Positions 23,116 to 40,876 of a stretch of 64,000 nt of DNA are shown piece after piece (within the stretch, counting starts at the first letter, position 1; the number at the start of each line of letters is the position of its first letter). The position numbers were made by a program, and so were the translations under genes. Location of the stretch: IMG/VR virus record IMGVR_UViG_3300012347_000377, positions 1-64,000 of that record; one strand, written 5' to 3'. The notes under the pieces were generated by a model. That model saw nothing but the letters and a program-made list of their open reading frames with translations. It was not told the DNA's origin and made no database searches. This DNA comes from a virus. Lineage: Duplodnaviria > Heunggongvirae > Uroviricota > Caudoviricetes.

Positions 23116-23126
23116 CTATAAAATAC

Positions 23127-23197
23127 ACGGGTATGGTGCAATGGTAGCATACGGCTCTCCAAAAGCTTTGATGGAAGTTCGAATCTTTCTATCCGTG
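23127..23197 (+). tRNA. tRNA-Trp (CCA)
   Basis: ACGGGTA/TATCCGT, loop CTCCAAA, GGAAG-TTCGAAT-CTTTC; anticodon stem has one mismatch. Confidence 0.55.
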
Positions 23198-23258
23198 CTA
23201 AATGTAAAATTATGAAACAATTATTTGACAAACATTAGGTAACAAAACCTAATGTATA

Positions 23259-23689: not shown

Positions 23690-23692
23690 AAT

Positions 23693-23764
23693 AGTTCCGT
23701 AGTTTAACGGATAGAACAATTGGCTACGAACCATTAAATGGGAGTTCGATTCTCTCCGGAACTA
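23693..23764 (+). tRNA. tRNA-Arg (ACG)
   Basis: AGTTCCG/CGGAACT, loop CTACGAA, GGGAG-TTCGATT-CTCTC. Confidence 0.65.
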
Positions 23765-23828
23765 CAAATGATATGGTACCTGAAACGTTAAATGGAGGGG
23801 GGTTCGCCTGAAATGCCATATCATTAAA

Positions 23829-23901
23829 TGTCAGGTTGACCGAGTTGGTTAGGTGGAGGTCTGCAAAACCTTTTACATTGGTTCGAATCCAATACTTGAC
23901 T
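23829..23901 (+). tRNA. tRNA-Cys (GCA)
   Basis: GTCAGGT/ACTTGAC, arm GAGGT-CTGCAAA-ACCTT, ATTGG-TTCGAAT-CCAAT. Confidence 0.65.
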
Positions 23902-23960
23902 CGATAAAGGATACTGGTCGTATCGCCTGACGAGGAGAGTGTGGTTCGATTCCACAAAAC

Positions 23961-24030
23961 TGCGTGACTTAGTGGAAAAGAACTTTCTCTCATAAGGAAG
24001 GTCAATTGAGTTCGAACCTCAAACACGCAA
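23961..24030 (+). tRNA. tRNA-like, anticodon CAT (Met/Ile2-type loop), weak D-arm
   Basis: TGCGTGA/ACACGCA (1 mismatch), TTTCT-CTCATAA-GGAAG, TTGAG-TTCGAAC-CTCAA. Confidence 0.3.
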
Positions 24031-24096
24031 CGATGAATAATATATTATACAAAAGCAGTATATTTAGGGGTAAATGAATAATATATTATACAACAT

Positions 24097-24182
24097 AGAG
24101 AGTTACCCAAGTCGGTGAAGGGGCCTGTTTGCTAAACAGGTAGGATGTTAAAGTCGCAAGGGTTCGAGCCCCTTACTCTCTA
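24097..24182 (+). tRNA. tRNA-Ser (GCT)
   Basis: AGAGAGT/ACTCTCT, CCTGT-TTGCTAA-ACAGG, long variable arm. Confidence 0.85.
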
Positions 24183-24199
24183 CGGAAAAATAATTAATT

Positions 24200-24274
24200 G
24201 CTCGTATGGCGGAATTGGAATACGCAACGGCCTTAGAACCCGTACAATTGAAAGTTCGAATCTTTCTATGAGCA
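24200..24274 (+). tRNA. tRNA with UAG anticodon (Leu-decoding) but short variable arm
   Basis: GCTCGTA/TATGAGC, loop CTTAGAA, GAAAG-TTCGAAT-CTTTC; class-I architecture is unusual for Leu. Confidence 0.45.
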
Positions 24275-24297
24275 CAAACACTTAAACAACGATAATT

Positions 24298-24756
24298 ATG
24301 GTTTACAGAAAACTGGGAGACAGAACCGAAGTTGATTTAGTAGAATACATTAAAACGTATTTAACTAATCACGATGATGTTGATATTCTAATTGGGTGTG
24401 ATTCACAAAATCACAGATTCCAAACAACCTATGCCATCGTAGTTGCGTTGTATCATAGGGGTAAAGGTGGTCATGTCTTATATAACAAATGGACAGTTCC
24501 AAGAGAAAGAGTAAGACAAACTCGTTTATTAAATGAAGTTTGGTATTCAGTTGAAACTGCTGAATTACTAAGAGAATCAGGAATACCAAAACCAAAATGG
24601 ATTGATGTGGATTTAAATCCAGATCCACGTTTCAAATCTAACGAAGTGTTTAGACAAGCAGTTGGTATGGTTGAAGGAATGGGTTATCAGGTTAGATATA
24701 AATCATTAGGTCCGATTGCAACATATTGTGCAGACCACTTAGTAAAAAATAATTAA
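24298..24756 (+). CDS. DUF458/YkuK-like RNase H-fold protein
   Basis: DILIGCDSQ...YAIVVALYHRGKGG resembles YkuK family core (viGTDSq). Confidence 0.4.
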   Translation: MVYRKLGDRTEVDLVEYIKTYLTNHDDVDILIGCDSQNHRFQTTYAIVVALYHRGKGGHVLYNKWTVPRERVRQTRLLNEVWYSVETAELLRESGIPKPKWIDVDLNPDPRFKSNEVFRQAVGMVEGMGYQVRYKSLGPIATYCADHLVKNN

Positions 24757-24763
24757 AAAAACA

Positions 24764-24795
24764 TTTGGATATATAAAATAATTTTCGTATCTTTG
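24764..24795 (+). promoter_or_regulatory. phage promoter
   Basis: tttggatatataaaataattttcgtatctttg. Confidence 0.55.
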
Positions 24796-24810
24796 TAATG
24801 TATTAAAAAA

Positions 24811-24929
24811 TAAAGAGGTAGTGAAGCTGTAATGATGAGCTTTGGGGTAAAGGTTGGAAAAAGGGTTAATAGTATGACTTAAAGCCTACACTCATCATCA
24901 GTAACCCTGAAAGACCCGAAACCTCTTTA
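24811..24929 (+). ncRNA. structured RNA element (nested perfect helices) in 5' leader of tRNA-Met
   Basis: Outer 9-bp helix TAAAGAGGT/ACCTCTTTA; inner CTG-ta-ATGATGAG/CTCATCAT-CAG helix. Confidence 0.35.
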
Positions 24930-24933
24930 ATTT

Positions 24934-25010
24934 GGACTTGTAGCTCAGTTGGTTAGAGCAACTGACTCATAATCAGTAGGTAATAGGTTCGATCCCTATC
25001 TGGTCCACCA
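24934..25010 (+). tRNA. tRNA-Met (CAT), CCA encoded
   Basis: GGACTTG/CTGGTCC (one U-U), GCTC-AGTTGGTTA-GAGC, ACTGA-CTCATAA-TCAGT, ends ACCA. Confidence 0.75.
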
Positions 25011-25021
25011 AATAAAAAAGT

Positions 25022-25264
25022 ATGATTCCAAAAAGTGAAATGTTAGAAGGTTGGTATAATGGATTTAGTAGAAACAACCATGTAGCATATTGGGATGGTG
25101 ATCAATTCCAATACATCAGATATTCATTCGGTTTCTATTTGGATACGATTGAACATTTTGAAGATGTTAAAGAAAGTGGGTTTGATGGATTTGTTCCAGT
25201 TGAAAGAATTGAACGAATTCCAAATGATACTCAATGGAAAATTAAAGACGAAATTGGGTATTAA
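25022..25264 (+). CDS. hypothetical protein (80 aa)
   Basis: ORF. Confidence 0.4.
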   Translation: MIPKSEMLEGWYNGFSRNNHVAYWDGDQFQYIRYSFGFYLDTIEHFEDVKESGFDGFVPVERIERIPNDTQWKIKDEIGY

Positions 25265-25281
25265 AAAAAAGTAAAAAAAGA

Positions 25282-25313
25282 TTAGGAAATGTAAAATATT
25301 TTTCGTATCTTTA
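25282..25313 (+). promoter_or_regulatory. phage promoter (attagg variant)
   Basis: attaggaaatgtaaaatatttttcgtatcttta. Confidence 0.45.
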
Positions 25314-25349
25314 TAATGTTCTTTGAAACGATGGTTAGTAAAGTAATAT

Positions 25350-25424
25350 GGTGGTTGTAGCTCAACTGGTTAGAGCATCCGATTGTGATTCGGAAGGTTA
25401 TGGGTTCGAAACCCATCATTCACC
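25350..25424 (+). tRNA. tRNA-His (GTG) with encoded G-1
   Basis: G-1 plus GTGGTTG/CATTCAC, C73, loop TTGTGAT. Confidence 0.7.
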
Positions 25425-25500
25425 CAAGGAGTTCCCAATCTCAAGTGCTGGTTAGTTGAAACACGCTGATCGAAGAGCCCATCAAAATTGGTGGAATAAT

Positions 25501-25627
25501 AGTCTTGTGGCGAAATGGTAAACGCAAATGTCACTCGGAGAAGAAGGAACTAAGCCAACATCTCCTTGCAAGTGATAGGGTATTCTAAAGAGTAAATCCC
25601 GTACAGGTTCGAATCCTGTCATGACTA
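25501..25627 (+). tRNA. tRNA-like gene with roughly 55-nt insertion (paralogue of 726-838)
   Basis: AGTCTTG/CATGACT acceptor, D-arm GGCGAAATGGTAAACGC, ACAGG-TTCGAAT-CCTGT; internal hairpins CACTCGGAGA...TCTCCTTGCAAGTG and AGGG...CCC. Confidence 0.4.
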
Positions 25628-25819
25628 CAATGTATCAAATGTGCAGTGAAAATAAATGTAGGCATACATATATGAGGTGGGTTCGACTCCCGTATAATAA
25701 TTCCAACTTAGGGGGGAAGCCAAGTAACTGAAAACACATTATAGCCGATTTGGGTTGTGCACCTCGTCCGAGAAACCCTAATAGTTCCTAATAGGTCGGT
25801 ATGGAACTGATACATAATT

Positions 25820-25892
25820 GCTTCCATAGCTCAACTGGTAGAGCCCTCGATTTGTAATCGAGAGGTTGTTGGTTCGATTCCGACTGGAAGCT
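25820..25892 (+). tRNA. tRNA-Thr (TGT)
   Basis: GCTTCCA/TGGAAGC, CTCGA-TTTGTAA-TCGAG. Confidence 0.8.
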
Positions 25893-26268
25893 CCGATTGA
25901 TGTTTCGTTTGATGGTATGTTTTTAAGTTGCCAAAGTGCCGAAAGGATTACTTGATAAGTAAAAAGGATAAACCATCGTAATTGGCTCTATAATTGTTGA
26001 GGTCGCACCAAAGACAATGAGTGGGTGAATGATGATTAAATGTAGGTGACACTCCTTAATACTAGGATTGGAGAGAAGAGTTGGTGCATTTAGTAAGTAG
26101 TTCATAAGATGGGTTCGATTCCCATTAGAGTCTCAATGATTACTGAAATTGAATGATACGAGCCCCGAAAGTTCGAAAAGAGTCAGGCAGTAATCATAGA
26201 GTGGATTCATCAGTTGATGAAAACCAATCGGGGGTTGTCCCACTAGAATGGAAACATCCCCTGCATTT

Positions 26269-26342
26269 GGGACGTTAGTAGAGATGGTTACAATGTCGCC
26301 CTGTCACGGCGAAGGTCACGGGTTCGAGTCCCGTACGTCCCG
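26269..26342 (+). tRNA. tRNA-Asp (GTC)
   Basis: GGGACGT/ACGTCCC, TCGCC-CTGTCAC-GGCGA, ACGGG-TTCGAGT-CCCGT. Confidence 0.8.
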
Positions 26343-26465
26343 CAAATCCCGTTGATTACCTAATCTCAACATAAGGAATCACGTATAGGGAGTTGAGCAG
26401 ATTGAGAAGCTGTTTTGGCGGTAACGCTGAGAATATCTTGACACTTTGGAAAGACAAAGATTTTT

Positions 26466-26537
26466 GGCCCTATAATTAAACGGATATAATGCTTCCCTTC
26501 TAAGGAAGACTTGGGAGTTCGATTCTCTCTGGGGCTA
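26466..26537 (+). tRNA. tRNA-Arg (TCT)
   Basis: GGCCCTA/TGGGGCT, CTTCC-CTTCTAA-GGAAG. Confidence 0.7.
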
Positions 26538-26584
26538 CATAAAAATTAAAACGTAAACCATAAAATAAACCAAAACAAAAAATT

Positions 26585-27013
26585 ATGCAAAATCTTTTTA
26601 TTAGTATTATTATGTTGTTGTCACCAATTGAATTGACATCGACAAATGTAGAAATTGAAGAAAGTAGTTTAGAAGAAATTGGAGTAGTAACGGTCACAAC
26701 ATATACATCAACAATTGGAGAATGTGATAGTTCACCCAACGTAACTGCGAGTGGATTTAAAATCAGTAAGAGGAATCCAAAAAAACACAGAATCATTGCC
26801 GTAAGTAGAGATTTAAAACGTAAATTGAAATTCGGTCAGAAAGTAAAAGTAACTGGTGCTGGAAAGTATAATGGTGAATATGTAGTAAGGGATGTAATGA
26901 ATAAAAGATATAGAAGACATATCGATATTCTAATCAATCCTAAAGATAAACAAACTAAATTTTCAAAAGTGAAAATTTATAAAATAAAAGATAAAAAAGA
27001 TTTGGAATTGTAA
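26585..27013 (+). CDS. 3D-domain (MltA/YocH-like) protein, secreted
   Basis: Signal peptide; TASGFKI...IIAVSRDL...KVKVTGAG...RHIDIL resembles 3D domain. Confidence 0.4.
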   Translation: MQNLFISIIMLLSPIELTSTNVEIEESSLEEIGVVTVTTYTSTIGECDSSPNVTASGFKISKRNPKKHRIIAVSRDLKRKLKFGQKVKVTGAGKYNGEYVVRDVMNKRYRRHIDILINPKDKQTKFSKVKIYKIKDKKDLEL

Positions 27014-27032
27014 AATAAATTTCGTATCTTTG
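27001..27032 (+). promoter_or_regulatory. phage promoter overlapping end of upstream gene
   Basis: tttggaattgtaaaataaatttcgtatctttg. Confidence 0.5.
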
Positions 27033-27094
27033 TATATATCATACACAATTGATTGATTTTCTAACATATCTTATATTTATATTAAAGAGTTGAT

Positions 27095-27535
27095 ATGAAA
27101 GTAAGTGATGAAAAGATAATTGAAATATGTAATAACTCAATATCAATGGCTAGAGCAGCAGTTGATTTAGGAATACATTTTAATACTCTAAAAAGTAGAG
27201 CAATTAAATTGGGGTGTTATAAAATAAACCCATCTGGTAAGGGGATAAAAAAACCTAAAAGAGATGGATTTGATAAGATAGCTCTTTCTAAAATACTGAA
27301 TGGTGATGAACCACAATATCAAACTAATAAATTACGAATTAGATTGATTAAAGAAGGTATTAAAGAAGAAAAATGTGAAGTATGTGGTATAACCGAATGG
27401 AATGGTAAATCAGTTTCATTTGAATTGGATCATATAGATGGTAATAGGACAAATCACAAATTAATTAATTTAAGAATAATTTGTCCAAATTGTCATTCAC
27501 AAACTGAAACATATAGAGCAAGAAATATTAAGTAA
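27095..27535 (+). CDS. HNH homing endonuclease
   Basis: ELDHIDGNRTNH...ICPNCH (HNH with zinc ligands). Confidence 0.7.
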   Translation: MKVSDEKIIEICNNSISMARAAVDLGIHFNTLKSRAIKLGCYKINPSGKGIKKPKRDGFDKIALSKILNGDEPQYQTNKLRIRLIKEGIKEEKCEVCGITEWNGKSVSFELDHIDGNRTNHKLINLRIICPNCHSQTETYRARNIK

Positions 27536-27536
27536 T

Positions 27537-27622
27537 GCCTCGGTGGAGAAATTGGTAGACTCGCAGCACTTAAAATGCTGTCCGCCGTAAGGAGGGTGCC
27601 GGTTCGACTCCGGCCCGAGGTA
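27537..27622 (+). tRNA. tRNA-Leu (TAA)
   Basis: GCCTCGG/CCGAGGT, CAGCA-CTTAAAA-TGCTG, long variable arm, GCCGG-TTCGACT-CCGGC. Confidence 0.8.
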
Positions 27623-27737
27623 CAATGTAATGATTCGAAAGAATAGCGGAACAGATGCTAAGAATGAAATGGAAACGTTTGAAACTCGTATAAAGGAGTG
27701 AATTCGAAACAAACCGCACAGACATTACATTATTTTT

Positions 27738-27811
27738 GGGGATGTAGCTCAGTTGGCTAGAGCATCTGCCTTGCACGCAGAGGGTCGCAGGTTCGATTCC
27801 TGTCATCTCCA
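27738..27811 (+). tRNA. tRNA-Ala (TGC)
   Basis: GGGGATG/CATCTCC with G3:U70, TCTGC-CTTGCAC-GCAGA. Confidence 0.85.
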
Positions 27812-27819
27812 CTTTATTT

Positions 27820-27891
27820 GCTCCGTTCGACAAGCGGTTAAGTCACGTCCCTTTCACGGATGAGTCACGGGTTCGATTCCCGTACGGAGTA
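27820..27891 (+). tRNA. tRNA-Glu (TTC)
   Basis: GCTCCGT/ACGGAGT, CGTCC-CTTTCAC-GGATG. Confidence 0.75.
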
Positions 27892-27921
27892 CAACTATCG
27901 TTCTTTGATAAAACTAAAATT

Positions 27922-28284
27922 ATGGAAATACTATACATTGGCTTAGGTATATTATCATCGGCTTTTATATTCCTTTTGGGGTATTCGGTGAATGGTGTAT
28001 TTAACACACAGAAAAGAATAGTTGAATTGCAAGAGCAAATTAAAACTATTGATGTCAATTTAGGACAGATTGAAGAACACATTCATATCAGAATTAATGT
28101 AGTTGAAAAAGAACTACAAACAAACATTGATAGGGTGGATAGGGAATCGACAGCATTGTTAGATTCTCGATTAGACAAATTGGAAGCACGAATTCGAAAG
28201 GATATTCCAATTACGAATGATGAATTATTAAAAGAAATGAACGAAATTAAAGATGCGTTCAGACAAATGAGATTAACTTTATAA
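27922..28284 (+). CDS. membrane-anchored coiled-coil protein (120 aa)
   Basis: N-terminal TM helix then heptad-rich segment. Confidence 0.45.
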   Translation: MEILYIGLGILSSAFIFLLGYSVNGVFNTQKRIVELQEQIKTIDVNLGQIEEHIHIRINVVEKELQTNIDRVDRESTALLDSRLDKLEARIRKDIPITNDELLKEMNEIKDAFRQMRLTL

Positions 28285-28310
28285 ACTAATATAAAGAACG
28301 ATAGTTAAAC

Positions 28311-28398
28311 GGAGAGTTGTCAGAGTGGTCGATTGAGGTAGTCTTGAAAACTACTGCTTGTAACAGGGCCGGGGGTTCGAATCCCTCACTCTCCTCCA
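28311..28398 (+). tRNA. tRNA-Ser (TGA), CCA encoded
   Basis: GGAGAGT/ACTCTCC, GTAGT-CTTGAAA-ACTAC, long variable arm, ends TCCA. Confidence 0.8.
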
Positions 28399-28423
28399 AT
28401 TTTTAAATTTAAAACTAAATAGA

Positions 28424-28852
28424 ATGAATGTAAAACAAGCGTTAAAACTAAAAAATAAATTAGTTGGCGAAATCAAAGAGCAATACGAAATTGCAAAAAA
28501 GTATAATTCAATCGAAGAAGGTAATCCTCGTAGATACCAGATTGAAGGAGCATTACAACGTTCCGCAACTTTAACCAAAGAGTTGGTTGAATTGAAAACC
28601 AAATTACACAAAGCAAATATGCCGGTGTATCATTTAATCTTCGAATTAGCTGAAGCTAAGGGTAGAATTAAAGAATTGAAAAAAATCCCAACGGATGAAG
28701 GTAAACAAGAATCTCGTTATGGTAGTGTCATTTCAGTTAAAGAAGTAGAATTATCAGTAGTTGAAATCGCTGGTAAAATTAGATCAATGGAAGAAACTAT
28801 TGAAAGAATTCAGAATGAGTTGGATATTCATAATTCGAATACCCAAATCTAA
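28424..28852 (+). CDS. coiled-coil protein (142 aa)
   Basis: ORF. Confidence 0.45.
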   Translation: MNVKQALKLKNKLVGEIKEQYEIAKKYNSIEEGNPRRYQIEGALQRSATLTKELVELKTKLHKANMPVYHLIFELAEAKGRIKELKKIPTDEGKQESRYGSVISVKEVELSVVEIAGKIRSMEETIERIQNELDIHNSNTQI

Positions 28853-29073
28853 AAATATTGAGTAGAAGGGGGAGATGATATTTTTCTAATACATTCTTAC
28901 AATTCAACTATCTGGCACATAGCGGATGAACGATTAAGATATAGAACGATACACAACCTTCAACCCTTTTAGAGTCAACAATCGACCACTTTCAATGAAC
29001 TCAAACCTCGCTGAAACCTGGATGTCTTTTAAATTTTGATTCGAACCCTGAAACTCATTTATAAAAAACACAT

Positions 29074-30150
29074 ATGGATATTAATCAAATATTTGGAAAT
29101 TCTAAACAATTTAGTAATATTACACAGATAAACGAATTATTAAATGATGATGAAATCTATATCATAGATGGGTATATGATTAAACAAATGTCTTATCGTA
29201 TTGATGATGAAACTCCATATAAAGTTTCCATTGATCGTAAAGCCATCATTAGAAATAATCTAAAAAAAATAACAGATACATATAAAAAAATTATGTATTT
29301 TGAATCCGAAGAACTAGCATATGATTATGAGTCGGTTTCATATTTTATCGATTTATGTATGGAATTCGATGTTAAATTATTCATTTATTCATTTAATTGT
29401 AATATTAACGATTTCTTAAAAGTAAAATATCCAAATAAATATCCTACTCAAATATTAGCAAATACTGCAACTACTCTAATACAAAATTGTAATGGGCTTC
29501 CATCTAATTTGACTAGAACTAAAAATAAAAAATTACTTTTTTTAAATTATAATAGAAAAATAAATAGAGATTTAATAATAACATATCTTAAAAATTGGAA
29601 TGAATTACATAATCCAGAAAACATAATTTCATATCATAACAATTATACATTTAATTCAAATGTATATAAAACTATGTATAAAGATTATGCTGAAAAAAAT
29701 GGTATAGATTTTAATTATTTAGATTCATTGGTTTTAAAACCTGAAGAAGTTGATGTTCATAATCAAAGTGATGCACAGCAAAAAGCACAATTACTGCATT
29801 ATGAATCTAAATTTAATATAATTTGTGAACCATTTTTTGGATTAAGTGATAATCCAAATGAATATGAATATTACAACCATACACTAAGTAGAAAGGTAGT
29901 ATATCCTATATTATATAACAATGTTATATTTGTTCACGAACATAGTCCAATCTTATCTAAGACATTGAAAAATTTAGGATTTGAATTATTTTTTGATAAT
30001 ATTGAGGATTTTAAAAATAATATGACAGATAAGTTTTACTATTCAGACGAAACTCAAAGAAAACTCATACATAATAATACGTTATTGGAAAAACTTGGCT
30101 CAAGTTATAAAAAAACTTTAACGGATGAAATAAATAATTTTTTTAATTAA
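29074..30150 (+). CDS. hypothetical protein (358 aa), very A+T-rich (N/Y/I/K-rich)
   Basis: Long ORF inside tRNA region; composition differs from neighbours. Confidence 0.45.
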   Translation: MDINQIFGNSKQFSNITQINELLNDDEIYIIDGYMIKQMSYRIDDETPYKVSIDRKAIIRNNLKKITDTYKKIMYFESEELAYDYESVSYFIDLCMEFDVKLFIYSFNCNINDFLKVKYPNKYPTQILANTATTLIQNCNGLPSNLTRTKNKKLLFLNYNRKINRDLIITYLKNWNELHNPENIISYHNNYTFNSNVYKTMYKDYAEKNGIDFNYLDSLVLKPEEVDVHNQSDAQQKAQLLHYESKFNIICEPFFGLSDNPNEYEYYNHTLSRKVVYPILYNNVIFVHEHSPILSKTLKNLGFELFFDNIEDFKNNMTDKFYYSDETQRKLIHNNTLLEKLGSSYKKTLTDEINNFFN

Positions 30151-30186
30151 AAATTAAAAATAGTATATATATAAGTATATACAAAC

Positions 30187-30271
30187 GGAGGCGTGGCAGA
30201 GTGGTCGAACGCGGCGGTCTTGAAAACCGTTATACTGCAAGGTATCGTAGGTTCGAATCCTACCGCCTCCG
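30187..30271 (+). tRNA. tRNA-Ser (TGA), second copy
   Basis: GGAGGCG/CGCCTCC, GCGGT-CTTGAAA-ACCGT, long variable arm. Confidence 0.75.
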
Positions 30272-30515
30272 CAACCTTATTCTCATGTTGGGCTCAGGTG
30301 AGTGAAAAGCGTACGAGGTTACTGAGTCCTTTATTGTAGTGTGACGAAATTGGCAGACGTGCCCTCCTGTCTCGGGGGTGTGGAATAAAGAAATAGATTG
30401 ACAATATGGGGTAGACCACCAGCATGCATGCGAACGATGTTGTCAATTGAATCTCCATTTGAGTGGTTCGAATCCCTTCACTACAGCATTATTAATTTAA
30501 TATCCAGTATCGATA

Positions 30516-30725
30516 ATGGCAACATTAGAAACCCAATTTAAACAATACCAATATGATAATCCAACTTCTAAATTAAGTTTTGAGGAATGGAAAACATCGG
30601 TATTATCAGTTCAATCACAAAGTATTATTGAACAAATTATTGAATTAAAAAAACTTCCCACAACTCAAACTACTAAATTGTTGATACAAAAACTTCAACA
30701 ACAAATGGATGAGTCATATGAATAA
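30516..30725 (+). CDS. hypothetical protein (69 aa)
   Basis: ORF. Confidence 0.4.
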   Translation: MATLETQFKQYQYDNPTSKLSFEEWKTSVLSVQSQSIIEQIIELKKLPTTQTTKLLIQKLQQQMDESYE

Positions 30726-30727
30726 CA

Positions 30728-30988
30728 ATGAGTCAGATAATTAACATACTTGAAGGTTGGGGTAATGTAGTTAGAAATCATTTCGATATGCTCGATAAAG
30801 ATACTAAATCATTATCCATAACTCGATTAGTGCATTGTGATAATTGTGATTTAAGAACTTCAAATTCATGTGATACTGATAAATACGGATACCATGTTAA
30901 AACTGGTAAACGAACTTATGGTTGTGGTTGTAATATTGCAGCTAAAACTTTATCCAGAAATTCTGAATGTCCATTAGGTAAATGGTGA
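30728..30988 (+). CDS. Cys-rich small protein (86 aa, at least 9 Cys)
   Basis: CDNCD...SCD...GCGCN...ECPLGKW. Confidence 0.4.
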   Translation: MSQIINILEGWGNVVRNHFDMLDKDTKSLSITRLVHCDNCDLRTSNSCDTDKYGYHVKTGKRTYGCGCNIAAKTLSRNSECPLGKW

Positions 30989-31004
30989 TTACCTATATAA
31001 TAAA

Positions 31005-31274
31005 ATGAAACTAATCAAAAACCAAAAAACGATTGAATTATTAGAAGGTGTTGGTGTAGTAATGCGAATTATAGCTTTCGGAACACTTTCCATTATGGGT
31101 AAAGATACTCCCTTTCTTTGGATGTGGATATGGAATACCATCGATGCAGTTATATTAACTTATGCTGCATGGGCCCGTGATAATAAATCGTATATTCTTT
31201 TAAACTTCTTTTGGTTAATAGTGGGAGTTGTTGGTATTTACACCTCAATATATGGAAATGGTATTTCTCACTAA
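31005..31274 (+). CDS. small membrane protein
   Basis: 3 hydrophobic helices. Confidence 0.4.
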   Translation: MKLIKNQKTIELLEGVGVVMRIIAFGTLSIMGKDTPFLWMWIWNTIDAVILTYAAWARDNKSYILLNFFWLIVGVVGIYTSIYGNGISH

Positions 31275-31295
31275 TCTTGCCCGCTTAAAATTAAT

Positions 31296-31544
31296 ATGAA
31301 AGGTAATGTAATTAACATCGATAAACAACAAATTGAGTTAATCAATTTAATAGATGAATGGTTGCGAGATGAAATGGTGGAAACAACTACTACCAAAGCT
31401 CAATTAAATGTAATTTATAACGCTAGAGAATTTCTAACAAAGATTTTAGAAAAAGGATGGTATAGAGATGGTGGTGATGATCAATTACTACTTATCGAAT
31501 TAAGAAGTGAATGGATTAGAAATGGTGGCAAGTGGAGAAGCTAA
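31296..31544 (+). CDS. hypothetical protein (82 aa)
   Basis: ORF. Confidence 0.4.
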   Translation: MKGNVINIDKQQIELINLIDEWLRDEMVETTTTKAQLNVIYNAREFLTKILEKGWYRDGGDDQLLLIELRSEWIRNGGKWRS

Positions 31545-31642
31545 TTAGCTTATCAGTTAAAGGTTATTAAGTTTTCTTTTTACTTTTCCCCCCTCCCCCA
31601 TATATAGCTTATATAACTATAGCGATTTAAAAAAAATAATAA

Positions 31643-33472
31643 ATGGAAGATATTTCAAAAGTAGAAAAACGAATTCTTGAACAAATAGAAAGTAATGTTC
31701 CGTTGGTTGATGTGAAAATTGATTTAAGTAATTATCTGAAACATGCGTTTGTTAATGACCACATCGATAAATCTAAACAAGAAATAACTCACACTTTTCA
31801 ATATGAAACATTAGGAGAACAAGATTGTTTATTAATGCAAGCTCCTAATATCAATGAATCTGGTTATTATGCCGGTATTGTTGCGTTAAAATCCTACATA
31901 GATAAATTTCATTCAGATTTGAATGTTGCAATTATAGACCCCGTAATTGATTATTTTTATCTATATCCACCAAATAAAGAATCTGAATTTTTTAATATGT
32001 TCAACACCTATGCAATGCAAGGTCAATATGAACGTTTATATGAATTCACCGAAATGAATGATATGGTTGAAGGATTTGTCTTCAAATATATCGAAAAAAC
32101 CAATCCTGCATTTTTTGGATTAAGTATTATCGATGGTAATATCGATGCATCGATTGCAATTGCAAGAAGAGTTAAAGAACAATATCCACATATTAAAATT
32201 TTGATGGGTGGTAATGGAATTGAGGTTTTAGACTTCGGTGTTCTACCGAATCCTACTTACACAACTGAAAAATATGATTTCATTGATATTTTTGTAAGGG
32301 GCGATGGTGAAATTACTTTTGTGGAAATTTTGAAATCGGACATGTCTGAAGAATATCTAAAAACTATAAATGGAATTATTTGGAGAAATTCGGAAGGTAA
32401 GTTAGTTCATAATCATACTCGTGAAAATGTTGATATGGATATTTTACCATTTCCAGATTATGCTTCATTAGAGGAAAATTATTATTACAAATCTACCTAC
32501 CAATACAATGTTCCACTTGTTATGAGTAGAGGATGTCCTTACAGATGCACATTTTGTTCAGTACCTGAATTTATTCCGGTCTTCCGCTATCGTAAATTAG
32601 AATCGGTAATTGAAGAAATGGAACATTGGATTAACAAAGGACGTTATCACTTTTTCTGCCACGATTCAATTATTAATGGTGATCCAAGATGGTTGAAAAA
32701 ATTCTGCGAGGCAGTTATTGAAAAAGATTGGTATGCAAAATATGGTGTATCATTTGGTGGTAATATGAGATTACAAACTCCAATGCGTGATTTAGAAACA
32801 ATGCGATTATATCGTAAAGCCGGATTATTAAAAATGATTACAGGGTTTGAATCTGCATCAGAGCCAGTTTTAAAACATATGAAAAAATATCCTAATATGG
32901 ATGGGGTTAGGGAAATTTTTGAAAATGTTCGAATTATCAATAGTGAAAATGAACCTCCAATGATGTTTGCAATGCAACTTATTATTGGATACTTAAATGA
33001 GAGTGAGGAAGATTTTCAGAAAACAATTGATTTTGTGAAAGAGTATAAAGATTGTATGTCTGAAATCTTAACTTGTTCTGGGTTTCTTATCCACGAAACT
33101 TTACGAAAGAAATGGGTAGAAGATGGTAATTTTTTACAATATCATAATACGGTTAATTTTAATACCAATTATAATACTGCAGAAGAACGTTTGGATAGAC
33201 TTAACAGAATCGATGAAGTATTTAAAGAAATAGGAATACCACATTCGGTCTATAATAGAGGTTTATATTATGATTTAAAAGATAAAACTGATACGGAAAT
33301 CGGTGATATTTACAATATCGATGATTGTAAAAATCCGGACAAGATATTAGAAATAAATCAGTATTATAAAAATACTGAAGAAGAAATAATGGTTGAAACT
33401 GAATCGGAGATAATTGAAGAATATATTCAAATGTCAAATGAAGAACCTCCAAAAATTACTAAATTAATTTAA
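31643..33472 (+). CDS. B12-binding-domain radical SAM enzyme
   Basis: CPYRCTFCSV (CxxxCxxC) preceded by Rossmann-like ILMGGNGIE region typical of cobalamin-binding rSAM proteins. Confidence 0.75.
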   Translation: MEDISKVEKRILEQIESNVPLVDVKIDLSNYLKHAFVNDHIDKSKQEITHTFQYETLGEQDCLLMQAPNINESGYYAGIVALKSYIDKFHSDLNVAIIDPVIDYFYLYPPNKESEFFNMFNTYAMQGQYERLYEFTEMNDMVEGFVFKYIEKTNPAFFGLSIIDGNIDASIAIARRVKEQYPHIKILMGGNGIEVLDFGVLPNPTYTTEKYDFIDIFVRGDGEITFVEILKSDMSEEYLKTINGIIWRNSEGKLVHNHTRENVDMDILPFPDYASLEENYYYKSTYQYNVPLVMSRGCPYRCTFCSVPEFIPVFRYRKLESVIEEMEHWINKGRYHFFCHDSIINGDPRWLKKFCEAVIEKDWYAKYGVSFGGNMRLQTPMRDLETMRLYRKAGLLKMITGFESASEPVLKHMKKYPNMDGVREIFENVRIINSENEPPMMFAMQLIIGYLNESEEDFQKTIDFVKEYKDCMSEILTCSGFLIHETLRKKWVEDGNFLQYHNTVNFNTNYNTAEERLDRLNRIDEVFKEIGIPHSVYNRGLYYDLKDKTDTEIGDIYNIDDCKNPDKILEINQYYKNTEEEIMVETESEIIEEYIQMSNEEPPKITKLI

Positions 33473-33475
33473 TAT

Positions 33476-33509
33476 ATAACCCATTGAAATTCAATGGGTT
33501 TATTTTTTA
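33476..33509 (+). terminator. rho-independent terminator (conserved hairpin family)
   Basis: AACCCATTGAAATTCAATGGGTT plus T-run. Confidence 0.65.
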
Positions 33510-33530
33510 TTAAAAATAATTGAAAAAACA

Positions 33531-33562
33531 TTTGGAAAATTGAAAAAAAGGTTGTATATTAG
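33531..33562 (+). promoter_or_regulatory. phage promoter
   Basis: tttggaaaattgaaaaaaaggttgtatattag. Confidence 0.5.
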
Positions 33563-33598
33563 CTAAGTAATAAGAGATAAACAATAAAACTTAAACAT

Positions 33599-33889
33599 AT
33601 GAAAACTCAATTTGAAATTTGGTTAGAAAAGGTTAATAGTGAATTTGAAGGTGTGGTATATAGTTGGTCACCTTTAACTGCTAAGAAAGGTTCTAAGTTT
33701 ATAAAAATACAAAACGGAAGTACGGTTTGGGGATTCGTTTCAATGTATGATGGTGAGTTTCAAGGATTTCCTGTTAAGAAAGGTGATTTAATGAAACCAG
33801 CAAGTTGGAGAGCCCCAGCCAAACATAGTAGAGGAAATATATTCGATGGAACTGCTCGTTATAAATGGACAGGACCAGAATACTTATAA
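33599..33889 (+). CDS. hypothetical protein (96 aa)
   Basis: ORF. Confidence 0.45.
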   Translation: MKTQFEIWLEKVNSEFEGVVYSWSPLTAKKGSKFIKIQNGSTVWGFVSMYDGEFQGFPVKKGDLMKPASWRAPAKHSRGNIFDGTARYKWTGPEYL

Positions 33890-34032
33890 AATTAAATTAT
33901 GGAAACATTAGCAGTAATAGTAGGATTGTTATGTGTGGTATTTATATACCTATCGTTCAAACATGTTCAGATACATGAAAAAAAAGATATTAAAGTTTTT
34001 AAAAAAATGACAAAAAATAAAAAACCAAAAAA

Positions 34033-34293
34033 ATGATTGTAAAGGATTTTAGAAAATGGATTAATTCATTACCAGTTGAATTCGATGAGTATGAATTAAC
34101 TCATAGAGAATATTATGATGTAGATGGTGAAAATCTCTTTGCAAATGAAGTTCCGTTAGTATCAGTTCATATTGATGATTCTGAAAACAAAGCTTGTTTA
34201 ATGCACGAACAATCATATTTAGTATTTAAAGGTGATGAATCTATAACTAAATTAAAAGTTCCAAGTAAAAAAGTAGAGGTAGATGGATTATGA
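34033..34293 (+). CDS. hypothetical protein
   Basis: ORF. Confidence 0.4.
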   Translation: MIVKDFRKWINSLPVEFDEYELTHREYYDVDGENLFANEVPLVSVHIDDSENKACLMHEQSYLVFKGDESITKLKVPSKKVEVDGL

Positions 34294-34516
34294 TGATCCA
34301 TATGAATTAGAGGCTGATTTATATTATAAAAATTCCAAAGCTCCATTTGAAATAATGGTAGATACGTTTCATGGAATTTATAATAGAAATTGGAAACTAT
34401 ATTTACAATCAATCGAATGGGATAGTGAGTGGTTAAGACACGATACTATGGCTGAAATGATTGAACGATTTGAGAGAAAACAAAAAGAATTGCACCCTTT
34501 TAAACAATTTATATGA
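34283..34516 (+). CDS. hypothetical protein
   Basis: ORF overlapping neighbours by ATGA-type junctions. Confidence 0.4.
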   Translation: MDYDDPYELEADLYYKNSKAPFEIMVDTFHGIYNRNWKLYLQSIEWDSEWLRHDTMAEMIERFERKQKELHPFKQFI

Positions 34517-34758
34517 TGTATGATTTTGAATATGAAAATATAATTCAGCATTGGGCTGATAAATTAGATATGGAAGTTGATGAAGTTCAACGTGCAATTT
34601 TAATTGAATCCTATAAAGTAATAACGGAACAATTTGGGGTAACCACTATGAGTTTCGATGAATTAATTCAGAATACTCTTTTAGATTTAAAGTGGGAAGC
34701 TAAATATCCCGGTCTAAATCTACACGAAAGAGTAACTGCTTATTATAACCTAAATTAA
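34513..34758 (+). CDS. hypothetical protein
   Basis: ORF. Confidence 0.4.
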   Translation: MMYDFEYENIIQHWADKLDMEVDEVQRAILIESYKVITEQFGVTTMSFDELIQNTLLDLKWEAKYPGLNLHERVTAYYNLN

Positions 34759-35099
34759 TGAATAACCTAATAACAGGTATCCTCTATGGAATAGTGGGAC
34801 AAATAATAACTTTTTTACAATTACAAGGAAATGTAAAATATGGTTGGTATGAAAAATATCCAATCATAATTTTACTTAGTTCAATCCCATCCACATGGTT
34901 TTATGTTAAATCCGTAGATAATTTTGTTCAAGCATTTGATGGTCAGATTTGGCCATCGAGAATGATTGGGTTTGGTATTGGTATTATTATATTCGTAACA
35001 TTGAGTATGATTTTATTCAAAGAACCAATTACCATTAAAACCTTAATTTGTTTAATCCTTGCAGTTGCTATTCTTTGTATTCAAATTTTTTGGAAATAA
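34758..35099 (+). CDS. membrane protein (113 aa)
   Basis: Hydrophobic. Confidence 0.45.
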   Translation: MNNLITGILYGIVGQIITFLQLQGNVKYGWYEKYPIIILLSSIPSTWFYVKSVDNFVQAFDGQIWPSRMIGFGIGIIIFVTLSMILFKEPITIKTLICLILAVAILCIQIFWK

Positions 35100-35100
35100 A

Positions 35101-35132
35101 TTTGGATATGTAAAATATTATTCGTATATTTG
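35101..35132 (+). promoter_or_regulatory. phage promoter
   Basis: tttggatatgtaaaatattattcgtatatttg. Confidence 0.5.
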
Positions 35133-35160
35133 TAATATAAACATTAAACCATAAACGAAT

Positions 35161-35343
35161 ATGACTTGGAAATATAGAGAAATGGGTTCTCGTGATAAAA
35201 AAACTGGTAAGTTAAAATATTACGATGTGACCGTTACGGATTGGAAAATTACCAATTGCACATGTGAGGCTAGAAGTTTTCGTAGATTCTCTCCTTGCAA
35301 ACATATGGTTTCAATAAATAAAAAATTAGGACATACTTTATAA
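35161..35343 (+). CDS. SWIM-type zinc-finger small protein
   Basis: CTCEARSFRRFSPCKH fits CxC...CxH. Confidence 0.4.
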   Translation: MTWKYREMGSRDKKTGKLKYYDVTVTDWKITNCTCEARSFRRFSPCKHMVSINKKLGHTL

Positions 35344-35346
35344 AAA

Positions 35347-35916
35347 ATGGCAAATCACATGACAACGTATGTTAAGGTTGATAATCTTAACGAAGAATCT
35401 TTTGATAAATTAATTCAATTGATATACCCATCAAAAGGACAATATAATATTCAATCGGTTGAAATCGTAAATCGTTTATTTGAAACAGATTATTCGGTAG
35501 AAGAAAAACGATTCCCCGATAATGGTTGGATGTTGGATAATATTGGTGCTAAGTGGATTGAGATTGAGTGTGATGATACACCCGAATTCGACACCACATA
35601 TTCATTCAGAGTAACATCGGCATGGCACGTACCTGAAGAATATTTACTAACTCTAACACAAACACTGGTCGATATAAAATCAGATGTTGTATTATATGGG
35701 ACTTATGAAGATGAATCATATGATCCAATTGGAGCATTTGTGTATGCAGATGATTATGATGATGCTGAAGATTTGGATATAGAAATTGATTTTGATCAAA
35801 TATGGGAAGATGATAATTATCGAATTTCAATCTTTGATGAACTCCATTTATTAAAGGAAAATCTATATGATTCTTACTTAGAATATATTGCAGATAAATT
35901 AAATGACGAAAATTAA
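35347..35916 (+). CDS. acidic hypothetical protein (189 aa)
   Basis: ORF. Confidence 0.45.
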   Translation: MANHMTTYVKVDNLNEESFDKLIQLIYPSKGQYNIQSVEIVNRLFETDYSVEEKRFPDNGWMLDNIGAKWIEIECDDTPEFDTTYSFRVTSAWHVPEEYLLTLTQTLVDIKSDVVLYGTYEDESYDPIGAFVYADDYDDAEDLDIEIDFDQIWEDDNYRISIFDELHLLKENLYDSYLEYIADKLNDEN

Positions 35917-35927
35917 AATATAAAAAT

Positions 35928-36122
35928 ATGAAACAAGAAATGTTTAATTGGTTGGTTGGTGTTGGATTATTTGCAGGAATTGCAACTATTATTTACATAA
36001 TTGGTGCACAAATCAATCCGTATGCACATTTTAGTTGGTTAGAAAGTTGGGGATTAGTTATGTTAGGTATAACTATGAAATCTGGTTTAGATACTTATAA
36101 TGAAGATAATGAATCTGAATAA
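35928..36122 (+). CDS. small membrane protein
   Basis: ORF. Confidence 0.35.
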   Translation: MKQEMFNWLVGVGLFAGIATIIYIIGAQINPYAHFSWLESWGLVMLGITMKSGLDTYNEDNESE

Positions 36123-36657: not shown

Positions 36658-37113
36658 ATGAATTGGATAGAATACTTTAGAAATCTTGCTAATAACGTTA
36701 AACTAAAATCAAAAGATTCAAAAACACAGATTGGTGCAATTATAGTTGGAAATGATAATGAAATTGTTTCTACTGGTTACAATTCATTTCCAAGAGGAAT
36801 CGATGATACGAATCTATTAAGACAAGAAAGACCAGAAAAGTATTTTTGGTTTGAGCATGCCGAACGTAATGCTATTTATAATGCAGCAAGAATTGGAGTT
36901 TCCACCAAAGGAACTACTATGTATTTAAGTCATTGGTTTCCATGTGCAGATTGTGCAAGAGGAATTATTAATGCAGGAATAACTACTATTTATTGTGATA
37001 AGATTGATACGGAAGATAAATCTACATCTTATTTAGAATCGTTCAAACGAAGTAAAGAAATGTTATTAGAAGCAGATGTTAAGATTTGTTTTTATGATGA
37101 TATAAAAAATTAA
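36658..37113 (+). CDS. dCMP/cytidine deaminase
   Basis: Zinc motifs HAERNA ... PCADCA. Confidence 0.8.
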   Translation: MNWIEYFRNLANNVKLKSKDSKTQIGAIIVGNDNEIVSTGYNSFPRGIDDTNLLRQERPEKYFWFEHAERNAIYNAARIGVSTKGTTMYLSHWFPCADCARGIINAGITTIYCDKIDTEDKSTSYLESFKRSKEMLLEADVKICFYDDIKN

Positions 37114-39021: not shown

Positions 39022-39747
39022 ATGGCAGATAATCAATCAGCAAAGCACAAAGAGTTGACTCAACAAATTAAAGATGACAAAACTCAAAGACCTAAGGCTC
39101 CAATTAAATTTCAAATACAATTAAATGAGGAGCAGAAATTAGCAAAAGAAAAGATTTTAAATAACGCCATAACAATTCTAAGTGGTAAAGCTGGAAGTGG
39201 TAAAACACTTTTAGCATGTCAGGTAGCATTAGATATGTTATTTAAAAAAACTGTCAATAAAATAATTATCACCCGTCCAACGGTTAGTAAAGAAGAAATC
39301 GGATTCTTACCCGGTGATTTAAGAGAAAAGATGGAGCCATGGATGCAACCTGTCTATTCTAACTTCTACCAATTATACAATAAAGAAAAAATCGATAAGA
39401 TTTTAGAAAGTGGACAAGTTGAAATTGTTCCTCTTGCATTTATGAGAGGTAGAACTTTCTTAGATTCATTTATTATTGTGGATGAGGCACAGAACTGCAC
39501 TAATGACCAAATGGAAATGATTACATCTCGTTTAGGTTTGAGAAGTAAGATGGTAGTGTGTGGTGATTCACAACAAGTGGATTTAAAATATAAAGGAGAT
39601 AGTGGATTTAAATTTCTAGTAACTGCCGCAAAGAAGATTAAAGATATGGATTCACAGACTCTTTTAATGAATCACAGACACCCAGTGGTAGATGCACTTT
39701 TAGATGCATATTTAGAATATAACGAAACCACCAATGCAAAAAAATAA
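39022..39747 (+). CDS. phoH: PhoH-family ATPase
   Basis: Walker A GKAGSGKT, IITRP, VDEAQN (Walker B). Confidence 0.85.
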   Translation: MADNQSAKHKELTQQIKDDKTQRPKAPIKFQIQLNEEQKLAKEKILNNAITILSGKAGSGKTLLACQVALDMLFKKTVNKIIITRPTVSKEEIGFLPGDLREKMEPWMQPVYSNFYQLYNKEKIDKILESGQVEIVPLAFMRGRTFLDSFIIVDEAQNCTNDQMEMITSRLGLRSKMVVCGDSQQVDLKYKGDSGFKFLVTAAKKIKDMDSQTLLMNHRHPVVDALLDAYLEYNETTNAKK

Positions 39748-40876
39748 TATACAATTCTGGTATCACCCTATAATGGGTGGTACGGGATTGCAATCATTAT
39801 TAGAATCACTTTATCCAAATTCATTTAAGTTATATACCGATGATTCTGATATAGATTCATCAATTCAAAATATAATTACATTTTTTTGGGAAACTCATTC
39901 TGCTATTAACTTAGAAGCCAAAACCAACAAACCCGAATTCTTTGAGTTGGTTTCTAAATTAAATAATAAAGGATTTTATTTTTTAGCAGATTATACAACC
40001 GAAGCAAATAATAATGTTGATTTAGATAGAGTTGAGTTTTTATCTAAATTATTAGATTGTGGTGTTGGATTGACTAGAAACTTTGCACTTACTACAAATG
40101 ATTCAACTCATTTAAATCTAGTACAACATCAATATGGAATTCACACCATAAACAAAATTCATTTCCCACATTTTTTAATTAGCACTCCATTGGAAATGGG
40201 TAAGTATATTATTGATGTATCCGATAGAGAAACTATTACACCAACCAAAGATTTTCTTTGTTTGAATCGAAGAATGCAATCTCATAAATTCAATATGGTT
40301 AAACATATTTGGGAAAATGACGAGTTGGAAAATACACATCTAAGTTGGGTTTGTAATAAGATGGATATTGAATCAATTAAGGATGAACCAATCATTTCAG
40401 CGTTAGGAATCGATTTAAATAATTTTCAATCAATACAATTGGAAGATGATATAATGTATGGTAGTGAATTAGATACTGCCGATGAATATCTTTACACTAT
40501 AAATCCAGAATGGTATTATAAAAGTAAAGTAAATATAATAATCGAAACTAACGCATATAATTCACCAACTCACATAACCGAAAAGACATTAAAATCTATA
40601 TTTTTAGAAACTCCATTTGTAATATTTGCAACGGATTTACATTTAGATGTATTACAGAAATATGGATTTGTAGTATTTGATGAATTTACAAAATATCAAC
40701 CATCCAATGAAAAATCAGTATTGGATTCTGCTAGAGAACTTGCAAAAATATATGATTATGATTCCATTCGTAATGTATGTAGATTTAATCGAAACGTATT
40801 ATTGGATACTCATAATCAACGGAGAATATTAGAAACGTATTTCATATCATCTATAAAAACTTTAAATAATACATAA
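39734..40876 (+). CDS. hypothetical protein (380 aa)
   Basis: ORF. Confidence 0.5.
   Translation: MQKNNIQFWYHPIMGGTGLQSLLESLYPNSFKLYTDDSDIDSSIQNIITFFWETHSAINLEAKTNKPEFFELVSKLNNKGFYFLADYTTEANNNVDLDRVEFLSKLLDCGVGLTRNFALTTNDSTHLNLVQHQYGIHTINKIHFPHFLISTPLEMGKYIIDVSDRETITPTKDFLCLNRRMQSHKFNMVKHIWENDELENTHLSWVCNKMDIESIKDEPIISALGIDLNNFQSIQLEDDIMYGSELDTADEYLYTINPEWYYKSKVNIIIETNAYNSPTHITEKTLKSIFLETPFVIFATDLHLDVLQKYGFVVFDEFTKYQPSNEKSVLDSARELAKIYDYDSIRNVCRFNRNVLLDTHNQRRILETYFISSIKTLNNT

Follow-up and report, generated by a model that had tools for sequence, protein, structure and literature searches.

Which reaction a phage would carry out with a radical S-adenosylmethionine (SAM) enzyme of the cobalamin (vitamin B12)-dependent type, and on what substrate, is the question raised by a gene near the middle of a 64,000-nucleotide stretch of phage DNA (positions 1–64,000 of IMGVR_UViG_3300012347_000377; hereafter the window). 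Some of biology's most difficult C–H functionalizations are the work of class B radical SAM enzymes, very few of which have a known substrate. A preliminary description of the window had proposed that the gene encodes such an enzyme, that small Cys-rich proteins encoded just upstream and an IscA/HesB iron-sulfur (Fe-S) protein encoded elsewhere might belong with it, and that it could hypermodify nucleic acid or mature a peptide. We analyzed the enzyme, its neighbors, and related loci (L001 and so on). The explanation that we favor as a whole, which we hold to be possible rather than probable, is that the gene encodes a stand-alone accessory enzyme of class B architecture that acts on a sugar or glycan, and to which neither the Cys-rich neighbor cys86 nor IscA is dedicated. 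Coordinates are collected in Table 1.

The open reading frame (ORF) and its CPYRCTFC motif are as first described. PF04055 (Radical_SAM) matched at 58.1 bits (gathering cut-off 29.5) over profile positions 2–166 of 166, and the motif cysteines C298, C302, and C305 were 100% conserved among 121 sequences (the enzyme and 120 homologs) and invariant too in relatives at 25–60% identity. By motif and profile, the protein is assigned to the radical SAM superfamily. Twenty-six NCBIfam families matched it; B12-type radical SAM families dominated, and behind them came methylthiotransferases of the MiaB/RimO type and a small number of radical SAM activases. The matches included BchE (TIGR02026; 114 bits, equivalog cut-off 481.35), rSAM_ocin_1 (TIGR03975; 96.1 bits, subfamily cut-off 281.85), which is a C-methyltransferase of ribosomally synthesized and post-translationally modified peptides (RiPPs), HpnJ (TIGR03471; 93 bits, cut-off 578), ApyD (85 bits, cut-off 750), and the PhpK family (TIGR04479; 80 bits, cut-off 600). 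BchE, HpnJ, TIGR03975, and PhpK share with the phage enzyme the layout of a B12 domain and a radical SAM core, but the enzyme scored 3- to 7-fold under their cut-offs. Its likeness to MiaB and RimO was confined to the core (29–54 bits against cut-offs of 251–357), and Pfam found in it neither of the domains that mark those proteins, UPF0004 and TRAM. No PHROGs family matched the enzyme, and PADLOC returned a single generic match (31 bits, to candidate model PDC-M51A) with no defense or counter-defense assignment. The family is known to annotation pipelines under generic names (the automatic JGI name of its relatives is "YgiQ-like radical SAM") and has no placement in a characterized subfamily.

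The predicted fold was more informative about class. An AlphaFold (AF2) model built from 27 family sequences (predicted local distance difference test [pLDDT] 77, predicted template modeling score [pTM] 0.74) comprised a disordered N-terminal extension of ~55 residues (pLDDT <50 at residues 1–8 and 18–45), a Rossmann domain in which strand and helix alternate from E62 to E216, a radical SAM barrel, a C-terminal domain, and a disordered acidic tail (pLDDT ~31–35 over residues 580–609). In a Foldseek comparison with the PDB, the top 15 matches were TokK (7KDX/7KDY), TsrM (6WTE/6WTF), OxsB (5UL2-4), CysS (9N1B-D), and MgmA (9CCB), with E values of 2e-15 to 1.6e-13 over 490–560 aligned columns, and the alignments to TokK, TsrM, and OxsB took in the Rossmann domain as well as the core. 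A search of the PDB with the enzyme sequence found MgmA (E = 1.9e-9), TokK (1.7e-8), and CysS (6e-6). The phage enzyme has in common with these five a three-part architecture of N-terminal Rossmann domain of the cobalamin type, CxxxCxxC radical SAM barrel, and C-terminal domain. It is 14–18% identical to them (TM-scores ~0.5) and differs in its N-terminal extension, its acidic tail, a different C-terminal domain, and a cobalamin binding that is predicted. Residues G159, S161, G189-G190, and E223 (of a GDGE/GEGE motif) were invariant or nearly so down to 25% identity, as were the cluster cysteines, D341/N345, E403/S406, and K415; S161 and G189-G190 stand at what we take to be the expected positions of the "SxL...GG" motifs of B12 domains. 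By architecture and modeled fold, the enzyme is predicted to be a class B-type (cobalamin-dependent) radical SAM protein, an assignment that is solid at the fold level and weak by sequence. The proposal of a class B enzyme in a phage thus stands at the fold level, where the B12-type domain is present and the placement is not with generic Fe-S oxidoreductases.

A different view of the Rossmann domain is that it holds no cobalamin, as in AprD4, which has the same fold and does not use the cofactor, and that the enzyme performs nonmethylating radical chemistry (dehydration, rearrangement, or cyclization); this view is independent of the substrate. Several observations speak for it or count against the cobalamin-dependent part of the explanation favored here. 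The PF02310 (B12-binding) match, over residues 147–229, reached 25.0 bits (E = 1.7e-5) against a cut-off of 32.1, so that of the two Pfam domains looked for, Radical_SAM exceeded its cut-off and B12-binding did not; the cobalamin-binding-like N-terminal domain of the preliminary description holds by its predicted fold, which is nearest to class B enzymes, and not by its Pfam score. Of the 120 homologs listed, fewer than half carry a precomputed PF02310 match. No NCBIfam subfamily cut-off was reached, and the best scores were bunched with none standing out. AprD4 was itself a strong structural match (E = 1.5e-11), the 64 kb window contains no cobalamin-related gene, and many aquatic hosts are B12 auxotrophs. 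However, the cobalamin-using structures ranked above AprD4 (and MiaB) in the fold search, the NCBIfam AprD4 model was not among the listed matches of the window enzyme and scored 22–27 bits on cellular relatives, and conservation of S161, G189-G190, and the GEGE motif extends to the wider family. We therefore consider it unlikely that the domain functions without cobalamin.

The family has its center in phages. A word-indexed protein search returned 915 relatives, the best 120 of which, on contigs of up to 286 kb, were all at least 62% identical to the enzyme; the viral contigs that carry relatives reach 276 kb, and the metagenome contigs that do so reach 286 kb. An exhaustive search of representatives gave 31,250 matches at E <1e-3 and 122 at E <1e-30, a level that corresponds to about 120 bits or more. 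The orthologs in L028 and L039 are shorter, at 550 residues. Beyond the phage clade (at least 62% identity) came P0122 and P0123, at 42–44%, and then a thin set of cellular proteins of 460–505 residues at 28–38% (P0129, P0131, P0134, P0135, P0145, P0148, and P0157). No homolog above 25% identity was found among GenBank/INPHARED phages. Among 185,579 species genomes there was one close match (61% identity), on a 1.9-kb contig, probably viral and mis-binned, in a Pelagibacterales metagenome-assembled genome (MAG); the second-best was at 32% identity, in a Bacteriovoracia MAG, and the remainder were generic relatives at 24–29%. A metagenome scan added at least four family loci. The ratio of nonsynonymous to synonymous substitution rates among family members was 0.10–0.21. 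Judged by these sequence comparisons, the family is real, under strong purifying selection, and essentially phage-borne. The phage origin of the window's own copy is also upheld: the window is phage-like in carrying all its genes on one strand, a tRNA array, and a transfer-messenger RNA (tmRNA), and its relatives lie on IMG/VR contigs. No paper on the family was found in the literature, and those that surfaced concern unrelated systems (HpnH in amoC-phages, pelagimyophage radical SAM cassettes, and a cyanophage SPASM-type maturase).

Other proteins of this fold are encoded by viruses, namely a B12-like radical SAM protein of Streptomyces phage SF3 and BFVD entries named "COG1032 Fe-S oxidoreductase" from uncultured Caudovirales, but they are 13–25% identical to the enzyme (13–15% for BFVD) and represent separate uncharacterized lineages. 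Bacterial megaproteins of 1,000–2,700 residues with two to four tandem B12-radical SAM modules (P0124–P0128) ranked high in our searches because their scores are summed over the modules. Each module is 25–30% identical to the phage enzyme and, at an estimated ~110 bits, no closer than single-domain relatives, and we rejected the megaproteins as special relatives. They are cellular and uncharacterized, and their clusters, with glycosyltransferases, carbamoyltransferases, SPASM proteins, epimerases, and a GDSL hydrolase, echo the phage neighborhoods. Bacterial proteins of 2,100–2,330 residues, with up to four such modules and in some cases SPASM, are encoded at L045 10001–16996, L127 10001–16840, and L128 10001–16297; their clusters hold further radical SAM-SPASM genes, carbamoyltransferases, family 4 glycosyltransferase (GT4) fusions, an arylsulfotransferase, and a gene resembling 3'-phosphoadenosine 5'-phosphosulfate (PAPS) reductase.

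Two natural pairs of related phages differ precisely in the enzyme gene. The flanks of L027 and L011 are 93–96% identical in nucleotide sequence, and in place of 3 bp of L011, L027 has 2.36 kb (6978–9340) with the enzyme gene and the gene for c13. Likewise, the flanks of L002 and L013 are 90–97% identical, and where L013 has 10 bp, L002 has 1.72 kb (1912–3635) with the enzyme gene as its only gene. The genes for cys86, memb89, and p82 and the tRNA/tmRNA array are all retained in the enzyme-less phages. The position of the enzyme gene also shifts among the same neighbors: it follows p82 in the window, lies between cys86 and memb89 in L002, and follows a p82-like gene in L001. These clean gene-sized insertions or deletions and the shifting position show that the enzyme gene is a dispensable single-gene cassette, set into a conserved backbone and gained or lost as a unit, and that cys86 is a syntenic neighbor. 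The stop codon of the window's copy is followed by a strong terminator-like hairpin, at which the transcription unit of the gene is predicted to end. The neighbor c13 had been read by eye as sulfotransferase-like (PxKxG...RxPxxxxxS motifs), a reading that Pfam and a PDB profile search did not back. In one phage lineage, an orphan gene for a protein of ~500 residues with a Cys-rich tail (cluster c3; L033 8805–10313 and homologs) is often the next gene after the radical SAM gene, and in L001 (18886–21591) the c3 orphan clusters with a 901-residue protein bearing Hint/intein matches.

The enzyme could instead be a peptide or protein C-methyltransferase (a RiPP-type maturase) that acts on cys86 or on another phage or host protein, and the small upstream proteins bear on this directly. 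They do not form the Cys-rich set that had been described: cys86 has six cysteines (residues 37, 40, 48, 66, 68, and 81) where at least nine had been counted, and it is the only one that contains any, as p69, memb89, p82, and p96 have none. All six are invariant in the close subfamily, and in distant homologs C48 is replaced by a Cys three residues before C66. The protein is conserved end to end and is predicted to fold into a pair of helices with a small cysteine knuckle after them (AF2 pLDDT 83); a fold search of the PDB and a tblastn search of GenBank phages gave no match. The suggestion of a maturase draws on TIGR03975, the second-best NCBIfam match, and on ApyD, and on the finding that in about 19 of 24 loci cys86 is no more than 5 kb away from the enzyme; in addition, MgmA and Mmp10 are class B enzymes that can methylate folded proteins. 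The scores against both RiPP models are far below their cut-offs, however, and cys86, conserved throughout and confidently folded, is unlike a leader-core precursor. A search of viral contigs with cys86 found 12 loci, 8 of which (L011 and L013–L019) had no radical SAM gene within 6 kb, and L028 and L037–L039 encode the enzyme with no cys86 within about 7 kb, which is not the pattern of a co-inherited precursor. No gene for a protease, a transporter, or a protein resembling a RiPP recognition element (RRE) is at hand. Because cys86 stays in place where the enzyme is precisely absent, and because it is folded, we conclude that it is a syntenic neighbor and not a dedicated substrate, partner, or precursor, and we regard a peptide or protein substrate as very unlikely. 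In L014, L015, and L019, cys86 adjoins two large co-conserved genes that had looked terminase-/portal-like by eye; Pfam did not confirm the one tested.

The IscA/HesB-type carrier is encoded where it had been reported, 14 kb from the enzyme gene. None of 29 IscA-bearing viral contigs coincided with an enzyme contig, in a search that reached close relatives only and among contigs that are fragmentary. No link between IscA and the enzyme emerged from this weak test, and on the explanation favored here neither IscA nor cys86 would be a dedicated part of the enzyme system.

An array that opens with the tmRNA gene and holds 26 tRNA genes for 20 amino acids (19030–30272) ends 1.4 kb upstream of the enzyme gene, and tRNA arrays also stand beside the enzyme in L001, L023, L002, and L027. 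This arrangement, together with the RNA-repair gene set and the 2-oxoglutarate (2OG)-Fe(II) oxygenases also encoded in the window and the partial likeness to the MiaB/RimO core, could mean that the enzyme modifies RNA or DNA, either the phage's own tRNAs and tmRNA or its genomic DNA. Yet in ten loci of a second lineage no tRNA lies within 7 kb, the array stays in L011 and L013, both of which lack the enzyme, and Pfam detected no nucleic-acid-binding domain in the protein, just as it detected no UPF0004 or TRAM. To our knowledge, no class B enzyme acts on nucleic acid. We think it highly improbable that the substrate is RNA or DNA. Of the two activities first proposed, neither found specific support: for RiPP maturation the TIGR03975 score is far below its threshold, and for nucleic-acid hypermodification the tRNA arrays are adjacent in some lineages only. 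The gene context of diverged members is instead a weak pointer to the tailoring of a sugar or glycan.

That context is clearest in L038, whose enzyme is 52% identical to that of the window. Upstream of the enzyme gene are three genes for proteins combining a family 7 glycosyltransferase (GT7) with Laminin_G_3 and a GT2-like gene, and downstream are genes for c30, a short-chain dehydrogenase/reductase (SDR)/epimerase, a radical SAM-SPASM protein, and UDP-glucose dehydrogenase. The same glycan module recurs on five marine contigs (GC 28–29%) of a sister clade, P0271 (44% identity), and in a cellular relative (P0134; 34% identity) the gene stands directly beside one for a sugar epimerase. The window's own lineage is tied to these by c30, a protein of 380–440 residues that is encoded zero to two genes from the enzyme in at least seven lineages (L001, L023, L038, L042, L161, L164, and L241) and 6 kb downstream of it in the window; it is the enzyme neighbor that recurs across the most diverged lineages. 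Since the glycan module is the sole context common to two diverged clades, and c30 connects it to the window lineage, we tentatively rank a sugar, nucleotide-sugar, or glycan first among the candidate substrate classes, on the basis of gene context. We had read c30 by eye as GT10-like (an "ITEK" motif) and rejected this: it had no match in Pfam, in PHROGs, or in two profile searches of the PDB, and no glycosyltransferase signature was found. The best 120 of its 249 relatives are all "hypothetical" or without a name.

Several points count against a sugar or glycan substrate. The connecting protein c30 has no Pfam, PHROG, or PDB match, and in the window's own lineage no recognizable glycosyltransferase or nucleotide-sugar gene lies next to the enzyme. 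The enzyme also occurs in other contexts, beside TonB-dependent receptors in three loci and beside tRNA arrays in the close lineages. A glycan context could also arise without functional coupling, from phage synteny and from cargo genes gathering in a hypervariable region. The evidence for all of the substrate readings is modest, because it consists of gene context in a hypervariable cargo region.

The receptors are the starting point for another possibility, that the enzyme acts on a tetrapyrrole, a corrinoid, or another TonB-imported compound in the manner of BchE, for example by modifying or degrading heme, or a macrocycle related to it, during infection. BchE, a tetrapyrrole cyclase, is the best NCBIfam match of the enzyme, and two of five cellular relatives (P0129, 38% identity, and P0131, 34% identity) end TonB-dependent receptor operons. 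The best model for these receptors is TonB-hemin (71 and 171 bits), and weak HugZ/HutZ-like and faint HmuY-like genes are near. In L028 (IMGVR_UViG_3300005611_000073; enzyme 64% identical), the gene for a 902-residue TonB-dependent receptor (4204–6912) lies 80 bp upstream of the enzyme gene; it encodes CarboxypepD_reg, Plug, and barrel domains and has a GC content of 39–40% against 31–33% in its flanks, and ribonucleotide reductase (RNR) genes lie downstream. The three enzyme-linked receptors are not orthologous to one another, which implies that the pairing arose independently each time. On the other hand, the BchE score is far under its cut-off and the receptor scores are under theirs (about 317), a receptor is present in 1 of ~24 phage loci, the remaining three cellular contexts are unrelated to receptors, and no cobalamin riboswitch was found upstream of the receptor-paired loci L028, L046, and L129. 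Moreover, Bacteroidota genomes are rich in TonB-dependent receptors, so that chance adjacency is plausible. A tetrapyrrole or other imported substrate seems to us quite unlikely.

Established class B chemistry suggests how the reaction might proceed. The reduced [4Fe-4S] cluster would split SAM to yield a 5'-deoxyadenosyl radical, which would take a hydrogen off an unactivated carbon of the substrate; methylcobalamin on the Rossmann domain would then hand over a methyl group, and a second SAM would re-methylate cob(I)alamin. If a sugar or glycan is the substrate, the product would be made during infection and would decorate the host envelope or the virion. In its most specific form, the proposal is of a phage-specific, truly cobalamin-dependent C-methyltransferase family that tailors a phage-made sugar or glycan shown on the virion or the infected-cell envelope, and in that form we hold it to be doubtful.

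The window has a GC content of ~31%, and all of its sizeable ORFs are on the + strand. Shine-Dalgarno-like motifs precede 5 of its 72 genes, and positions -20 to -1 are rich in A and poor in G; few Shine-Dalgarno motifs and A-rich leaders are the translation-initiation pattern of Bacteroidota. The nearest relatives of the window's helicase are in a crAss-like phage (40%) and in Cellulophaga phages (36%), and the L028 receptor, with its CarboxypepD_reg N-terminal domain, is of a type typical of Bacteroidota. From these three lines of evidence, the host of these large uncultured aquatic phages is probably a member of the Bacteroidota. The window's c30 has a 100% identical counterpart on a 288,673-bp contig, so the window phage is probably a jumbo phage. 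Megablast of positions 29000–36000 against GenBank phages gave no match.

Auxiliary genes in the window encode NAMPT, an SPFH protein, RNA ligase, IscA, a tryptophan-halogenase-like protein, a helicase, Fpg, PhoH, UvdE, and ThyA. The NAD-salvage set also includes an NMNAT-like cytidylyltransferase (CTP_transf_like), encoded somewhere in the window. An aggregated scan of 52 ORFs, in which domains were not assigned to individual ORFs, found the further RNA-repair domains cREC_REC, HAD_SAK_2, AAA_33 (kinase-like), and Metallophos; the RNA-repair set fits with the large tRNA array. Rfam also matched tRNAs at 727–839 and 25501–25627 (+; 37 and 38 bits) that ARAGORN did not report, and these matches of 113 and 127 nt might be intron-containing or otherwise interrupted tRNA genes. 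Related tmRNAs are present in L002 (6854–7225), L027 (12547–12922), L011, and L013, with tags ending in YAVAA or YAIAA. Three co-directional ORFs (213–252 aa) that lie 3' of the halogenase-family gene had no family match, and the 60-residue ORF at 35161–35343 had none in Pfam.

Table 1. Positions of the enzyme gene, its parts, and other features of the window
Feature	Position	Strand	Remarks
NAD-salvage set	7843–10650		Phosphoribosyl pyrophosphate (PRPP)-synthetase-like protein and NAMPT (143 bits)
RNA-repair set	13533–14672		Includes RNA ligase with PHA02142 OB domain
IscA/HesB-type Fe-S carrier	17744–18079	+	111 aa; Pfam Fe-S_biosyn, 60.8 bits
tmRNA	19030–19404	+	One-piece, phage-encoded; 102 bits; tag AEEKSSFTFADAMAFVGADLAVAA
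GOLLD RNA	20883–21294	+	Full-length; Rfam RF02032, 260.5 bits (gathering score 150)
tRNA-like gene	21301–21373	+	7 bases 3' of GOLLD; ARAGORN 4-base anticodon (gtga); Rfam 30 bits
cys86	30728–30988	+	86 aa, 6 cysteines; conserved folded neighbor
memb89	31005–31274	+	Small hydrophobic protein; seen in 20 loci; a homolog has a weak precomputed CBU_0592 match
p82	31296–31544	+	Small conserved neighbor; syntenic
Radical SAM enzyme gene	31643–33472	+	609 aa; predicted B12-binding-type N-terminal domain; ORF and Pfam
N-terminal extension	31643–31807	+	Residues 1–55; variable, poorly predicted; cellular homologs start near residue 60
Rossmann-type (cobalamin-binding-like) domain	31820–32392	+	~Residues 60–250; PF02310 and predicted fold
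Radical SAM core	32519–33037	+	Residues 293–465; PF04055
CPYRCTFC (CxxxCxxC)	32534–32557	+	Predicted ligands of the SAM-cleaving [4Fe-4S] cluster
C-terminal domain	33038–33280	+	~Residues 466–546; conserved in family; C478 and H484 invariant
Acidic tail	33281–33469	+	Variable; gapped in most homologs; disordered in model
Terminator-like hairpin and T-run	33478–33510	+	6 bases past the enzyme stop codon; 10-bp stem, 3-nt loop, then TATTTTTTAT
60-aa ORF	35161–35343	+	CxC...CxH pattern (TNCTCEARSFRRFSPCKH); SWIM-type zinc-finger look by eye
dCMP-deaminase-like ORF	36658–37113		Size as in annotated dCMP deaminase of relative L001
c30	39734–40876	+	Orphan protein, 380 aa
Tryptophan-halogenase-family flavoprotein	47112–48353	+	Pfam, 297 bits
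Thymidylate-synthase homolog	62448–63581	+	377 aa; 266-position model matched end to end; ~110 residues inserted

At present, the enzyme stands as an uncharacterized, largely phage-specific member of an established enzyme class, and not as a new kind of system. Its subfamily is abundant in uncultured aquatic phages, with hundreds of 90%-identity clusters on contigs of up to about 289 kb, and the closely related phages that do and do not carry the gene form natural pairs, which offer a clean handle on the product and make the question of the substrate testable by experiment. If the proposal of a cobalamin-dependent, sugar-tailoring family is true, it would give a virus-encoded class B enzyme a defined substrate for the first time, and the infection program of abundant aquatic Bacteroidota jumbo phages would depend in part on the host's supply of vitamin B12 and Fe-S clusters. 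Should cobalamin really be needed, the fitness of these phages would be tied to the availability of B12 and iron-sulfur in lakes and oceans.

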